Shown here one piece after another: positions 15,001-26,739 of a DNA stretch of 26,739 nt (the stretch's first letter is position 1; each line of letters opens with the position of its first letter). The DNA comes from Candidatus Izemoplasmatales bacterium. GTDB taxonomy: Bacteria > Bacillota_I > Bacilli_A > Izemoplasmatales > Hujiaoplasmataceae. The position numbers were made by a program. Where the stretch lies: NCBI GenBank assembly GCA_050177605.1, contig JBFXGX010000023.1, positions 1 through 26,739 of the forward strand, written 5' to 3'.

Positions 15001-18000
15001 ACCCAAGTAATTGAAACCACCCAAATGATTCTTGTAAAAAGATGACCCCTGCTAAAATGGATACAACCGTGGTTAAATTCGCAAAAATCGCCGCTTTTGA
15101 GACCTTCACATAACTCATGGCATCATTAATCATCAGAAAGGCAAGAACAGAAGAAATTCCAGCTAAATAAATCATATCGATAAAAAATCTAGGTGAAGAA
15201 AACACTGTCAAAAGCGCACGCTGAAGGTCAGTACTGTTTTGGATAAGACCTAATGGGATAAACACAATCATCCCCATAAAAAACATTAAATAGGTTCGCT
15301 CATATGTATCATACAGTGGTGCAATTTTTCTCGAGAAAACATTAAAGAAAGCTGCACTTATCACAGATATTAAAATAAAAAAGAATCCAAGAAATGAAAA
15401 AGAAGCGACTTGTTCACCAAGGGTTGTCACTGTGACACCTACGATACTTAAAGTTCCAAGAAGAATATGTCTCAGTTTCACTGTTTCTTTTAAAAACAGA
15501 AATCCAAAATAAAAACTTACCAGTGGTATTAATGAAATAATAATGCCGACATAGGAAGTTTGTAAAAGTCTTACTCCATAACTTTCACCAATGAAATAAG
15601 TCACGGGTTGGACCAGACCAAGTAATAATAAAATTCCGACCTTTTTACCCTTTAATTTCAACTTTTTCTTTTTCCATATAAATAGGACTTGCATGATTAA
15701 AAAAGCAATCGTAAAACGGAATCCTAACATCAAAAAGGGACTAGCAATACTTAGCGCATTTTTAGAAAACATAAAGCTAAACCCAAAGATTGCATATCCT
15801 AAAAATAAAAAGAGGTAAGAACGTTTTTCTAGATAGTTATTCGTGTTCATAAATTCACCTTGTGACATGATTTTAGAGACAAGTATATCATACAAAATAT
15901 CGATTTGCAATATAAAAAGGGATGAAATCATCCCTTGCATTTATATATATTAGTTACCGATTTAGATACACGCATTCTGTCCTGAAAGAATCACTTAGTT
16001 TAGCTCATAACATTTACTTTTTAAAGTAACTACTAATCTCCATTAAAGGAAATGAAACGATCCAGGATATATTGATACGCTTCTTGACTAAAAGGAAGGA
16101 TATCGTATTCTTCAAACGAAGATATATATACACTTTTTGATTCATCTTCATTTACTTGTACTTTTACAACAAATTTTACTTCAGGATATATTCTACTTAT
16201 CTCCTGGTATAGTTCTGAAGATTGGTTAAATACAGTAAGCAATTCTTCCTCGGTGTCGATAATTATAGAATAATCTATAAATGTATAGTCGTAAAAACTT
16301 AAATAATCGTCTTCTTCAATACGAATAACATAATTGGCATACTCACTTTGCAGACTCTCTAGTATATGGATTAATAAGATAGAATCATAATTATTACGCA
16401 ATGTATATCGATATTTGGCAAATTCACCAGTACTATCCCAATAACTTTCTTGTTGGCTAGAAATGACAAAATTAACATTATTATAGGATGCTTCCCAAAC
16501 CCGATATTTTCGTCCATATTCTGTTTCATTATCGACATATATTTCCGATACTACAACATCACTAGCACCTAGGTACTCTTCAATATATGCAACTACTTCA
16601 GTATAAGTATGCGGCGTTTTTGAAGCCTCATCTGGAATATCGTATTGACATCCACTTACGCTAGTAACAAAGATTATTAATAGAAGCAATGTAAAAATTC
16701 TATGTAGTAATTTTTTCATTATTTCCTCTAACACCCTACTCCTTTTTTAGTTCATTATAGCAGATTTCAAATTATCTTTAAATATAATATGCAAAAATAA
16801 TTTTTCATTTATTTTTTATGGTGAAGCAATCTATAGTGCACTCGAAAAAATAAGATTTCTCAAGGATTCTATTCTCTTTTTTTCTATTTAATTTGATTTC
16901 ATATTCTATGTTATAATTTTGTAAAGTACTTTGTTGGCAATAAAAAGGATTGACAAATTGTCTAATTCTTGACAGAAAGTAGACATCTATCAATCCTATG
17001 CTTTCAATATGGGTTGCATGACCTATTTTAATACAAATGCACACGAATAAGCAAAGTTGTAAGAAACACAAGGTTAGTTTTTAGCACCTCATGAAAATTG
17101 CTAAATAATATGGAATCTAAATGTCGACTCTGTAAATGCTATACTTTGGTATACCATCATAATAAAACACATAATTACTAGGTGGTGTAATTGTTTCTAT
17201 ATGGATACCACCGAGTTTGTTGATAACACTTTTAGATGAGTAATTATCCTCTTCACATGAAATAATCAGGTGCGTCATACCATGAAACCTAGCTACCATG
17301 TAAGTCATCATTACAGCTAATTTAGAATAATCATTTCCACGAAATGATTCGTCAATTTCATAGCCTACATTCCCGTTAATATAGGAATGTTCGTTGTGTC
17401 CAATGCGAATACTAATCTTTCCAATTGTGGTTGATATCGAGTTCAGGTAAATCTCATAATAGTAAAATGGAATAACTTTATCATCACCTTCACAAGTTTC
17501 AATCAGTTTTAGCGTAAGTGTATCACCTTTAATGATTGTAAAATTTCGATTGAATTCCATAACAATACCTCTATAAAAACATAGCCATGTAAACTGGCAA
17601 GTAAATAATATCATCTTTTGTTGCTAAATCTTTTGTATGAATGATGTATTTCTTGCCTAACTTATCTTTAAACTTGATACTAAACTTGTCCAATGATGAT
17701 GTGGTATAGTTTTTGCCAGACTTTACTTCAACTGGTGATATTTTAGTCGGTTTTGATTGATCGATGATTAAAAAATCAATTTCCATCGTATTTGAGCGAT
17801 CATGATTATCAGCTCTAGAGTAAAAATATAATTTCTTATTTAAAGCTGTAAACATTTGTGCAACGATATTTTCAAATATCATACCATTGTTGACTTCAAG
17901 TCGATCTTGAATAATCGCTTTTGCTACTTCTTGATGCATGTCATCATTTTCACTGAATGCTTGGCTCAGTAGTAATCCAGTGTCTGCCATATACATTTTA

Positions 18001-24000: not shown

Positions 24001-26739
24001 TTCAGAGTCTTCTTTTGAAGATTCATAATCAAATTCTACTTCAATATAATCGTTAGCCGAATCAAGTGAATATCTACTAGTAATATTAATACATCCCTCA
24101 AATACTAATATACAATTTATATAATCAATGTCATAATGAGTATCCACTACTGTCTTAATTTGATCCAACAAAGGCATCAAATCATCTAGTTTATCTGCAG
24201 TGAAATCTTCATGAGTGTGATATGTTACATCTAACATGTCTCCACCCCGATCAATTGTATAAGAGAAAATCATATCATCTTGATTATTTAGCAACAATTC
24301 TCTTAAGTCATTAGCCATATCAGATTCTTCTAATCTAACATCATTGTTTAAATAACTACACTGATCCATTTCCATGCAATCATCAATCGAATTGCCAGTT
24401 GGTGTTAATGCACAACTTACTAGTACTGGTATTAAAATCATTATAACCACAAATGTAATTGTTCTTTTCATTATTATCTAACTCCTTGTCATCTCTCATT
24501 ATATCATATCTTAAAATACGCAATAAGCTATCTCGAAACCGCTTACTGAACATATAAACTATAAGCTATTGATATATCAGAGGTTGCATTCTTAATATAT
24601 GAAGTGCCTCCCCAACCATTCGCTACAATAAAGTATTGATCTGTTTTATCGTGATAAAGGTTCCCATATAAATCAATTTTATAATACTTCACTTCTTTAT
24701 ATCCATATCCAACTACCATATGAGCTGAATTTGAGTATTCTACAAATTCCTCTGTGAGCAAATGATAATAATATGGTGTGCCATAAATGGTATATAAATC
24801 CGGAACTCCATCTGTGATATCTGTGTAGTTACCGTTATAAAAAGTAAAATCAGCTGAAGTATCTACGCCTAATGAAATTATTACTGGATGTTCATCATCA
24901 ATTTCATCTTTATACATATTCCATTCTGTAGTATCAAGTTCTACTCCAATACCCAGAGAAGTATTGGTTCCACCAATAATGTCTTCATGTTGGAGAGTAT
25001 AATTACTATCACTAAAATAATCTTCCATTGCATCATAAAAATCTGGTGGATATGTCCCCTCGAATGGTCCTAAAGACCCATTTAGTAGATACCAGTTATT
25101 CGTATTCATTGAATCATATAAATCAGTATGTAAATCTCGTAAAATCACTATTTCACTCGCACTTAAATCAGACCAGTTTTTATACGGATATTCATAATGA
25201 TATGAATAAGGTGGAATACCAACCATGACAGTTCTATAGGGCACAAACGAAGGTATTAGATCTGTTCTTAACTTATCCCAAAACATTATTACGGAAACTC
25301 CAGCAGTAGGATTACAATTATTTGTTTGTGTTGTACTACTCTTTACATCCGAAGTGCTCATCATGGGATATCCATTCTCAAATTCAACATTTGATATGAC
25401 GGTTTTTAAGTAATAAGGATACTCCTCTGTACCTGGAGTTGAAGTAGATCCTCCTGATGATAAAACCAGATCTTGGTTCGAATAATATTTTAATACATAA
25501 TCGTAACTATAAATTTGATTAGAACTACAATCTATCAAATTCAATCCATCATACTCGAAATACAAAGAATATGATAAATAAATATTTTTTGCATTTATGG
25601 TTTTAAATGGCGAGTCAACCCCTAGTGATACTTCAGCTACTTCGTGTATCCACTCACCTTCTACTTTAACTTTTCTTACAATTATAAACCCAAAGATATT
25701 CTCACTGATACCAAAAGAATATACATTACCATATGAGTTTAAAAATATATCATATACCTTTTCTTTTTTTACATAAGTGAAATCACTATCTCTTTTTACT
25801 GTCCCGTTACCGTCAAAGACAATAGAGTCGATTTCAGAATAAACAAACGCCTTTTCACTGACATGATACTCGTCATGATGCTTCGCCTCAACAAAAAGTA
25901 TATTTCCACTAGCTAAAACACATAAAACAACTAATACTAAAAACTTTTTCATATCGTTTTCCTTTCAAATATTTTTTGTTGTATTTAATAAAATCTTGAA
26001 TTAAACCTTAATAATCATGTTTAGAAACTTCTTACATGTCAGTTAAATAGATATAATCGATAAACCGTTATGCTTCTTCGATTGTCATATTTAGATCAGG
26101 TGTTTTTGCATTAAGCAATATTTACATTTCATATTACATTTACTTGATGCCTGTAGGCATATATATTGGATTGAATAATTCATTTCGACACATATATTTA
26201 ATTTAGATATCATCATCCAAATGGTTTTTAGAAAAAAGTTTTCAAATCCTTGTTTGTGAGTTTGGGGTAGTCTGGTAATAATATAATTCCATTGATACGA
26301 CTTATAATGTCGCTTTCATAAATAAATATTATCATATGTATTTTCATACGTCAATATCGTCTCCTGTTTTTTTTTTTTGAAAGAGCATTTGTCTGTAATC
26401 GTGTAAATCCATTTTAAATCGTGTAAACTGAAATGTAATCGTGTAGAAATTATATTGAAATCTCTAAAATCCAGTAAAAACAGTATGCTTTTTAGGTTCG
26501 ATGAATATGAGCAAGTGGCGAAACGGCCCTATATAGCGCAAAAAAAGCCTGATACTTAATTGTATCAGACTAATGCTTGTTATATGGGTTGCATTACCTA
26601 TTTTAATACAAATACGCACGTATAATTAAAGTTGTAAGAAATACAAGGTTAATTATATATCCTTTCTTCTTGACTTACCCAGAAGGGTTTGTTCTATAAT
26701 AACTATATAAGCACTGTGGATCTGTAACTAATTTAGTAT

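Follow-up and report, generated by a model that had tools for sequence, protein, structure and literature searches.

Accretion of mobile elements next to a conserved gene, including members devoid of recombinase, is already described for staphylococcal cassette chromosomes (SCC) and for the Dehalococcoides ssrA islands. SCC elements encode two co-transcribed large serine recombinases (CcrA/CcrB) and insert where a conserved gene ends, through a 2-bp crossover flanked by degenerate inverted half-sites at the gene's 3' end; the available part of the source also describes tandem composites, thought to grow gene-proximally, and members without recombinase (PMC13739063). The accessible sections on the Dehalococcoides islands report a CcrB-type serine recombinase together with a second one, tandem arrays and 15 islands without integration module, for which accretion was proposed, all at ssrA only, with a T-loop crossover, a 20-bp direct repeat and DsiA of 200 aa (PMC3146451). 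Islander elements, ICEs, IMEs, CIMEs and tycheposons, as far as the accessible accounts go, share with the system analyzed here tRNA and tmRNA hotspots, tRNA-proximal tandem growth and decayed members; in the available part of the tycheposon study, each tRNA has its own integrase and a large serine recombinase occurs in 27 of 937 elements. Multi-targeting large serine recombinases resemble the present system in using many attB sites, and the main text of their survey counts protein-coding targets, tRNA and tmRNA being absent from it. Streptococcal serine integrases, in the excerpts available, disrupt rumA, mutT, traG and hsdM.

The window analyzed here is a stretch of 26,739 bp on contig C23 of a Candidatus Izemoplasmatales genome bin (G000; other G numbers designate other genomes, and C numbers contigs of this bin). 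To our knowledge, serine recombinases are rarely seen at tRNA genes. Integrons, for their part, are characterized by IntI next to attI, attC hairpins and promoterless cassettes under one upstream promoter. The survey's finding was that the window holds an integron-like array of recombinase-free cassettes accreted behind tRNA ends. We consider, with a probability of about 0.8, that, as proposed, large serine recombinases encoded as a tandem pair (family 1) use its junctions as attachment sites and that the array reflects serine-integrase accretion at tRNA ends. The best reading is that the system works like SCC or the Dehalococcoides ssrA islands, and not like an integron. A literature search, covering mostly open main texts, returned no description of this system or of the insertion sequence that shares its target.

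Junctions of the array

The array is split by four 52-bp junctions, all on the minus strand and each composed of a 25-bp arm, CA and a second 25-bp arm. They lie at 16985..17036 (junction 1, CA 17010-17011; sequence and folding), 21457..21508 (junction 2, CA 21482-21483; arm profile and sequence), 23461..23512 (junction 3, CA 23486-23487, preceded by GGGTGTAAAA repeats; sequence) and 26560..26611 (junction 4, CA 26585-26586; arm profile and sequence), the coordinates first given being one base too high. The right arm P (TTGTAT.., 25 bp) is followed by CA, the left arm P' (..GATACAA, 25 bp) and a hairpin with a T-run. With TTGTATCAA on both sides of the 52-bp junction and an invariant CA, the geometry is that of an attP of about 50 bp, as the survey had recognized, and size and symmetry match the serine attP sites described in the available part of PMC3783163. 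Counted by hand, 8, 8, 8 and 6 of the 10 outer base pairs are inverted in the four junctions, in line with the 6-9 reported before. A P-arm profile, whose training set includes the window's own sites, gives these junctions 32-49 bits, versus a mean best score of -0.9 and a maximum of 13.6 in 30 shuffled windows. Moreover, despite nine variable preceding bases, CA is fixed 25 bp from the outer motif in 137 of 351 loose motif hits, the next-commonest dinucleotide reaching 30.

The survey had omitted a decayed fifth junction (core AA 21608-21609), which with a 126-bp gene-less unit spans 21483..21634 on the minus strand (arm profile and cross-genome match). Alone it is borderline (13.1 bits vs the shuffle maximum of 13.6), but the sequence behind it matches CA-cored sites of G162 and G063. 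A left-end hairpin remnant inside cassette 2 (19170..19262, minus strand; sequence comparison) is likely an eroded junction. Behind junction 4, the left end carries three subterminal TACACGATT repeats (26396..26446, minus strand; sequence), and the 8-mer ACACGATT is present in 47 of 98 left ends.

An intrinsic terminator with a 10-bp stem and a T-run overlaps the P' arm of junction 4 (26539..26571, minus strand; folding z -4.8) and would substitute for the tRNA's own terminator after insertion; at junction 1, a long-loop terminator extends to ~16945. Since P' forms a terminator and in places precedes host genes on its own (G017, G033), the repeat might be no attachment site and instead a terminator of the host, or a small RNA, that recombination has spread. 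We regard this as scarcely tenable, given that identical 25-mers lie behind unrelated tRNAs across many families, that an Rfam search returned no family except tRNA, that homology between cassette copies stops at CA and that the remaining tRNAs of G000 all have different native terminators. The comparison of empty and filled sites also contradicts it: the terminator behind tRNA-Gly(TCC) in G016 is that found behind the last P-CA in G018 and G021.

Cassettes and cargo

All units of the window are encoded on the minus strand. The segment 26587..26739 is the right end of the next upstream cassette, the remainder of which lies off the contig, and has 124 bp in common with the start of C17. Cassette 4 (23487..26586; 3,099 bp) encodes proteins of 469 and 232 aa which profile searches assign to no known family. 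These searches identify in cassette 3 (21609..23487) an HTH-Fic protein (22319-23260; PADLOC PDC-S04) and a GNAT acetyltransferase (21689-22306); this cassette is 90.5% identical over 1,689 bp to one at tRNA-Leu(GAG) of G158. Cassette 2 (17011..21483; 4,472 bp), probably two fused cassettes, contains by the same searches two AAA_14/DUF4143 ATPases of 424 aa (19907-21181) and 451 aa (17571-18926), both matching PADLOC PDC-S01, and two GNATs (19336-19701 and 17117-17614). The most distal unit, a 233-aa protein of no known family in profile searches (16033..16734), would be the oldest of the array. Its right end is unrecognizable, a search with the P-arm profile having found none. The protein as query had no match in the five relatives searched. 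The first host gene, encoding an EamA protein (14927..15940, minus strand), is placed by synteny with G033, G034 and G036; its position directly behind tRNA-Gln(CTG) in these three congeners identifies the tRNA-Gln(CTG) on C31 as the head of the C23 array. Among public sequencing runs, X3 and X4 contain cassette 4 at ~99%, with sparse cover of the host flank, a gap in cover being no proof in itself; in run contigs, the joints near junctions are short-sided (90% likeness) and best explained as an effect of the repeats.

Across genomes, 49 bounded units were delimited. Of these, 46 measure at most 9.2 kb and are devoid of recombinase, in agreement with their description as recombinase-free cassettes, and each of the other three (17-51 kb) encodes two large serine recombinases in tandem. 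Cargo across elements comprises CBASS, AbiE, restriction-modification, Fic, HipA, metal pumps, toxin-antitoxin and acetyltransferase genes, and mid-sized islands carry a primase-helicase gene.

The term integron-like fits the look of the array: cassettes on one strand (87 of 93 genes in the bounded units follow the element strand), cargo of defense and resistance type and, probably, the newest unit at the front. That the platform is genuinely integron-like, recombining single strands at attC-type sites, is nevertheless hardly credible. No IntI came to light in the 49 units with the three G000 tyrosine recombinases as queries, none of which had a match, junction folding is no better than in shuffles (z -0.8 to +1.4) and shows no attC-like hairpin, the enzyme is unlinked to the array, and whole prophages have the same ends. 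The terminator at each junction argues against readout from a single upstream promoter; a promoter scan gave 80 sites vs 69 +/- 10 in shuffles, not above chance.

Target sites and spread

In G000, P' lies directly 3' of the CCA of tRNA-Gln(CTG) on C31 and of tRNA-Ser(GGA) on C5. Behind tRNA-Gly(GCC) on C19, the left end has one inserted base and falls below the profile threshold, and a true cassette with a P-CA right end follows; the three sites reported before, including the diverged one, were thus all found. Full junctions are also present at C8:1706 and C19:13145.

Spread and targets are directly observed. P' was found behind the CCA of 16 tRNA types and of tmRNA in 118 of 401 genomes of the class, with controls at 0. 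Within the order, a T-arm followed by CCA and P' occurs in 57 of 158 genomes (37 in the earlier count; control 0), and the right-end pattern in 42 of 71 family genomes (earlier 39; reversed control 0). The CCA end of tRNA and tmRNA genes stands as the target. That any of them would serve was overstated and is unproven, as targets are many but skewed: four account for 43 of 63 sites, tmRNA for 7 of 63, and 24 tRNA types have no use among the loci examined. A preference of used tRNA types for the bases C69, C63 and G51 is a hint only, C69 being present in 14 of 17 used vs 9 of 24 unused types (p = 0.01) and C63 and G51 reaching p ~0.03, with ~100 tests and kinship uncorrected. In Acholeplasma laidlawii 8195, no tRNA was called in the 80 kb read for an array with four P arms.

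The recombinase pair

All three large bounded units carry the family-1 pair, among them, as noted by the survey, the 21-kb element of G015 and the 51-kb element of G068, the latter being in addition a complete prophage. This directly observed co-occurrence supports the pair as the candidate enzyme. Its proteins, of ~436 and ~527 aa, both have Resolvase, Recombinase and zinc-ribbon domains with a YARVS catalytic motif, an architecture that only the large elements encode. Counted by hand over the family-1 loci that have a site or extend at least 7 kb downstream, 17 of 26 have P or P' on the pair's own strand; the remaining nine show none in the stretch examined, two of them having a site further off. 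Furthermore, a P-arm motif is found 83-99 bp upstream of the pair's first gene, at constant spacing to a TTGA box, at all 47 loci of at least 58% identity (reversed control 0 of 70). Protein conservation could contribute, a short open frame running across this promoter motif, although in these related sequences the frame's Ile codon is ATC in 67 of 67 cases vs 594 of 2,248 in genes.

The nearest annotated proteins (42-50% identical) are serine recombinases that occur as pairs in Ca. Heliusvirales and in streptococcal phages. In phage record PV036447.1, whose pair is 49.5% identical, the sequence ends precisely on the CA that follows a P-like arm and starts with CAC-CA-P'-like sequence; such ends were sought in a second record, PV036425.1, and none was found. 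In the main text of the Heliusvirales paper, the terms integrase, recombinase, tRNA and attachment are all absent. The pair is also absent from the complete array-bearing genomes G006, G007 and G028 and, as stated before, from G000, a bin 89% complete, where the best match is 41% and the protein on C38 groups with a different recombinase family.

It is very unlikely that another enzyme, i.e., a tyrosine recombinase (host Xer-like or from a family-2 element) or a family-2 serine pair, makes the junctions. tRNA islands are classically products of tyrosine integrases, according to the available part of PMC4383910, and G000 itself encodes three tyrosine recombinases and one family-2 protein, with no family-1 pair. 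This second serine recombinase family has its own ends, Q and Q', uses the same CA and occurs on elements that carry a tyrosine-recombinase-like gene. However, islands of tyrosine integrases carry a displaced tRNA fragment, whereas here there is neither such a fragment nor an on-board tyrosine integrase, and the partners have merely 2 bp in common. Family-2 pairs, moreover, have Q or Q' within 0.25-0.5 kb in five of seven cases, P or P' on the element within 8 kb in none, and no P-arm promoter motif.

Regarding target recognition by the family-1 pair, the serine-integrase model, in the available part of PMC3783163, displaces the zinc-ribbon motif 5 bp inwards in attB. On tRNA ends, the 7-bp motif scores best at shift 5 (T-loop TCRANTC) and the 9-10 bp at shift 0 (TCAAA), all mean scores being negative; recognition of the T-loop is our guess.

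Insertion, probable accretion and movement

Ends and boundaries can be read directly: empty sites indicate insertion at CA with no tRNA fragment duplicated, and mixed junctions, P-CA-Q' and Q-CA-P', join ends of the two families. G006, G007 and G013 have a common distal cassette end, with additional cassettes in front in G006. From this, from the mixed junctions and from copies of an insertion sequence that lie 8 bp behind P-CA or Q-CA (see below), the order of insertion, newest at the head, is inferred. In these three genomes, as in G018 and G021, the last cassette is followed by CCA and a host terminator, as the survey had it; in the window, the last junction continues into another left end and the P-arm profile detects no further right end.

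Movement of cassettes between tRNA sites and genera is borne out, the same ones being found at Gln, Gly, Ala, Leu and Ser sites and G000 and G158 having cassette DNA that is 90% identical at a median identity of 44% for their host proteins. Each cassette might instead be a decayed autonomous island of the CIME type, moving only in cis, and the array a fossil stack. The ICE and IME tandems (PMC5704250) and the Dehalococcoides islands, in the parts of these sources available, are precedents, shortened second-recombinase genes lie at the starts of some cassettes, and none of 80 metagenome loci, taken from at least 123 stretches listed and informative only where the whole contig was included, has the terminal repeats of a circle. 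We deem this unlikely, as the same small cassettes, both ends intact, come first behind different tRNAs with different neighbors in different genera (AAA 451 aa at Ala(GGC) of G053, AAA 424 aa at Leu(GAG) of G158, AAA 416 aa at Gly(GCC) of G000 and Ala(GGC) of G015), and ends are ~80% identical over ~200 bp despite unrelated cargo. The circular 93-kb "plasmid" CP017949.1, considered as an excised element, was ruled out, for it carries host genes and tRNA-Cys.

Under accretion by the family-1 pair, inferred to be the enzyme, temperate phages and SCC-like islands of 17-21 kb would carry the pair, and a circular element with P-CA-P' as attP would recombine with a chromosomal tRNA or tmRNA gene, at the CA that closes its CCA. 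The T-arm and acceptor strand of the tRNA would make up the left half of this target, the right half being barely constrained; the tRNA gene would be kept whole, without duplicated fragment, and P' would supply a new terminator. Since insertion leaves the tRNA half as it was, a further element could enter at the same CA and displace the earlier ones, leaving P-CA-P' between neighbors. Cassettes of 0.2-9 kb would have kept both ~200-bp ends and lost the enzyme, at least partly through internal deletion of larger elements, in keeping with the shortened second-recombinase genes at cassette starts, and would be moved in trans by the pair, probably along with a helper phage, although this vehicle is a guess.

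This scheme resembles SCC in the paired recombinases of similar lengths, the 2-bp crossover, the tandem composites with recombinase-free members and the primase-helicase gene of the mid-sized islands. In contrast, SCC uses rlmH only and a GA core, while many tRNA genes, tmRNA and CA are used here, and the same ends bound complete prophages and cassettes of 0.2-9 kb; with NCBIfam Ccr profiles, the pair scores 86-140 bits vs cut-offs of 700-900. A serine recombinase pair, tandem arrays at an RNA gene and members without integration module are shared with the Dehalococcoides islands, from which the system differs by its terminal-CA crossover, the lack of a repeat beyond CA and its 16 tRNA types plus tmRNA.

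Implications

If true, our reading adds a class of tRNA islands, present in 29% of the class genomes sampled, that is invisible to tools which depend on an integrase carried by the island or on a displaced piece of the tRNA. It names likely attachment sites for a recombinase pair annotated merely as "DNA invertase" in related gut phages. We know of no textbook serine integrase that accepts a free right half-site; how an enzyme normally strict on both half-sites would cope with an unconstrained right half and with many different left ones becomes a testable question, as does the role of each subunit in a CcrAB-like pair. With CBASS, AbiE, restriction-modification, Fic, HipA and metal pumps as cargo, the system is probably a main route of defense genes in these bacteria. 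An integrase landing harmlessly behind native tRNA genes would also give bacterial genome engineering a tool with a broad host range.

More tentatively, and at somewhat less than even odds, one pair may read the universal T-arm, need no homology beyond the terminal CA and disregard what follows it, so that almost any tRNA gene with an encoded CCA would act as a renewable attB. At least 13 families would then exchange, in a single pool, phages, SCC-like islands and cassettes that lack an enzyme and are as short as 126 bp; every cassette could be excised singly, giving an integron-like stockpile without integron, and the second recombinase family and an IS3-family element would have converged on the same spot.

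A co-targeting insertion sequence

The survey correctly identified the tRNA CCA as target and missed that the second recombinase family and an insertion sequence use the same CA. The latter belongs to the IS3 family (NF033516 at 279 bits for a cut-off of 160, TG..CA ends, AAA duplicated in G015). It lies exactly 8 bp behind CA in 30 of 32 copies: 16 stand 8 bp behind a tRNA CCA and nine more 8 bp behind P-CA or Q-CA.

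Cassette array and its junctions

The minus strand of the window (contig C23 of the genome under study, a bin of 1.94 Mb and 89% completeness) carries four copies of a 52-bp attP-like site, in which a 25-bp right arm starting with TTGTAT (P) and a 25-bp left arm ending in GATACAA (P') enclose a central CA (26585-6, 23486-7, 21482-3 and 17010-1); a hairpin and T-run directly continue from P'. The units between these CAs, with genes on the minus strand, measure 3,099 bp (26585-6 to 23486-7; two unknown proteins), 2,004 bp (23486-7 to 21482-3; HTH-Fic and GNAT) and 4,472 bp (21482-3 to 17010-1; two AAA_14/DUF4143 ATPases and two GNATs), and a decayed fifth site at 21609 sets apart a gene-less unit of 126 bp (21483-21609). 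The array has 28-34% GC versus about 35% in host genes, and full junctions are also present at C8:1706 and C19:13145 of the bin. The system is real and widespread, and we favour, with a probability of about 0.8, accretion by a serine integrase behind the CCA of tRNAs as its explanation.

An inverted half-site resembling P lies at 23625-23650 (+), and such half-sites recur 110-165 bp within many cassette ends, also in the relatives G015, G018 and G158. Like the 126-bp unit of the window, short units (110-280 bp) that lack genes yet keep both ends occur in G162, on contig C10 of G063 and at database loci L409, L425 and L453; they resemble miniature elements. The LacI, PfkB, GT4 glycosyltransferase, ABC transporter and GH65 cluster at 3173-12271 (sugar or sucrose-like metabolism) represents ordinary host genes or older acquisitions.

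Spread, targets and head of the array

P was found in 42/71 family genomes (control 0) and P' in 47/71 (control, one hit), and a T-arm followed by CCA and P' in 57/158 order genomes (control 0). At class level, the latter was present in 118/401 genomes from 13/30 families (control 0) and absent from several well-sampled families among the 401 genomes searched. P' stands behind 63 of 179 distinct tRNA or tmRNA ends, a proportion that is no rate, the loci having been picked around hits. These 63 ends comprise tmRNA and 16 anticodon types for 11 amino acids, led by Leu(GAG) (13), Gly(TCC) (12), Ser(GGA) (11) and tmRNA (7), in agreement with the survey's finding that the left end follows many different CCA ends; a single identical 25-mer occurs behind Gly, Leu, Ser, Val and tmRNA ends. 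Related recombinases are found in records of Izemoplasmatales, Acholeplasmataceae, Anaeroplasmataceae and other Bacilli, and the genome under study probably belongs to Izemoplasmatales.

Within the bin, P' immediately follows the CCA of tRNA-Gln(CTG) on C31 and of tRNA-Ser(GGA) on C5. The EamA gene that borders the window array is directly preceded by tRNA-Gln(CTG) in three of four congeners (G033, G034 and G036; G035 gave no match in this comparison), and the second gene ahead of this tRNA in G034 matches the DegV gene preceding tRNA-Gln on C31. Because of this synteny we infer that the array, already proposed to start at a tRNA off the contig, has its head on C31. Contig breaks recur at this CA: C39 starts exactly there, C5 and C31 stop one k-mer (127 bp) past it, C40 ends in a tmRNA CCA, and C23 and C49 have ends one and four bases past a CCA. 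This suggests mixed occupancy within the sample; relatives in the same assembly could also be the cause. At window 2-86, tRNA-Leu(GAG), the most frequent target in relatives, lies one base short of the contig end and is probably a further occupied or mixed site. At C4:75147, a P' end ahead of a cluster of large genes is preceded by an unclassified arm, which may represent a third type of end.

Probable crossover point

Using a pattern of the outer 16 bp only, the dinucleotide at offset 25 was CA in 137 of 351 hits (runner-up AT, 30), about half of these hits being background as the reversed pattern gave 192; the nine bases ahead of CA are variable. The sequence after P-CA varies: it may be P', a different left end or a host terminator, and once it is the tRNA that comes next in an operon. 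The terminator after tRNA-Gly(TCC) in G016 is the sequence that follows the last P-CA in G018 and G021, and homology between C19 cassette copies ends at the CA. Together with the CA at offset 25, this indicates that the partners have only CA in common and that no tRNA fragment is displaced. On the tRNA side, the T-loop may match the arm motif in either of two registers, shift 5 or shift 0.

Family-1 recombinase pair

Of the 49 units with P' at one end and P at the other, 46 (0.2-9.2 kb) are devoid of serine recombinase and three (17.1, 24.3 and 51.0 kb) carry the tandem pair of large serine recombinases (family 1), as the survey had reported for cassettes and large elements, respectively; the 24.3-kb unit is the 21-kb element of G015 plus the next cassette, one end having been missed by the filter. 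With genes for terminase, portal, head, tail and tape measure, the 51-kb unit located at tRNA-Ser(GGA) represents a complete prophage of a tailed phage, and the 17-21 kb units contain a primase-helicase and defence cargo. The pair was likewise correctly described as missing from the bin, where it is not assembled. A distant single large serine recombinase (C53:348-1928, 25% to the pair) is, as far as tested, unrelated to the ends described here.

The pair proteins form two sister clades, and related pairs are located behind Gly(TCC), Ser(GGA) and Leu(TAG). P or P' lies on the pair's strand in 17/26 loci (counted by hand, leaving out short-flank loci without a site). The P-arm motif occurs just ahead of the pair's promoter in 47/47 loci at at least 58% identity, 7/23 at 50-58%, 0/7 rows of the second family and 0/70 controls. 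This position is what autoregulation would predict. Although the motif shares bases with a short open frame, its Ile codon is ATC in 67/67 versus a background of 26%.

The gut phage record PV036447.1 closes with CA behind a P-like arm and opens with CAC and CA ahead of a P'-like arm, and its "DNA invertase" pair is probably the integrase; such ends are absent from phage record PV036425.1. The former (L334-L335), with these att-like half-sites at both record ends, is a Ca. Heliusvirales phage. Two 100-kb IMG/VR contigs (L261, L263, L265, L266, L272 and L290) hold two family-1 pairs with P-CA-P' between them, that is, elements in tandem with phage genes in the second.

Second recombinase family and a co-targeting IS

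Family 2 is a second group of tRNA-end elements (L067, L068, L070, L221, L231 and L048; in the bin C38:11971-12946, C8:126, C29, C10 and C49:1-5), with a serine recombinase pair of about 567 and 553 aa, 40% identical, that is oriented towards the tRNA and adjoined by a tyrosine-recombinase-like gene. Its elements have their own arms, Q (ending in TAATGACAAGA before CA) and Q', around the same CA; on C49, tRNA-Cys precedes GGTT, the first bases of Q'. Family 2 forms cassette arrays of its own (many Q ends in G158), interleaved with family 1, and junctions mixing both kinds of arms occur. Each family would insert at the tRNA end regardless of the right half, in which case mixed junctions need no extra assumption.

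An IS3-family element, retrieved by an independent order-wide search (match in 40 genomes, 30 loci read), has its left end exactly 8 bp behind CA in 30/32 copies read, including 3/3 in the bin (C8:135, C17:167 and C34:2843; relatives, L354-L383). The CA ahead of these 30 copies belongs to a tRNA or tmRNA CCA (16), P (3), Q (6) or other CA ends (5). Unless att sites in general attract the IS, its copies after P or Q resemble former neighbours of tRNAs that were later displaced. Our literature search returned no paper on such an 8-bp rule.

Comparison with known systems

The kind of system is already known. SCC composites (PMC13739063) and Dehalococcoides ssrA islands (PMC3146451) work similarly, and ICE/CIME tandems (PMC5704250) and tycheposon islands (10.1101/2020.12.28.424599) grow alike. 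The array is a member of none of the classes compared: in contrast to SCC, Ccr profile cut-offs were not reached and the target is not rlmH; unlike the Dehalococcoides islands, targeting is not confined to ssrA; and the displaced fragment of tRNA islands is missing. The description "integron-like" is not borne out as membership either: IntI is unsupported, with 0/49 bounded units matching the tyrosine recombinases of the bin, and the junctions do not behave like attC, folding no better than shuffled sequences. According to Islander 2014 (PMC4383910), no serine integrases are known that target tRNA genes, to which ssrA islands are an earlier exception; neither PMC10083194 nor PMC11283538 contains the word tRNA in its main text (word count), and accessible texts yielded no description of this system. 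Three features appear to be new: a broad set of RNA targets combined with a 2-bp crossover, the common ends from a phage down to a 126-bp unit, and the three-way convergence at one position.

Probable mobility and order of insertion

The Fic-GNAT cassette shares 90.5% DNA identity with its G158 copy, versus a median of 44% between host proteins of the two genomes (14 proteins). Four cassette proteins have counterparts (85-94%) at Ala, Gly, Leu and Ser sites, cassette 4 (the 3,099-bp unit) recurs at about 99% in sequencing runs from two other studies, and conservation at both cassette ends extends over about 200 bp and includes subterminal repeats. No circle or excised form was seen among the 80 metagenome loci read, public run contigs and CP017949.1. 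Arrays occur in complete genomes that have no pair, which fits action of the pair in trans and also fits the arrays being fossil stacks. One Acholeplasma laidlawii array, without a tRNA head within the 80 kb read, was counted against accretion at tRNA ends. This array, in strain 8195 (L232-L235, 639-649 kb), has four P arms, the same non-P' sequence after the first and last P-CA and a 4,326-aa gene ahead; it possibly marks a secondary target. CP017949.1 (L221-L225), filed as a 93-kb plasmid, combines host metabolic genes, tRNA-Cys, a family-2 island, a prophage and a cassette array, and may be a chromosome piece.
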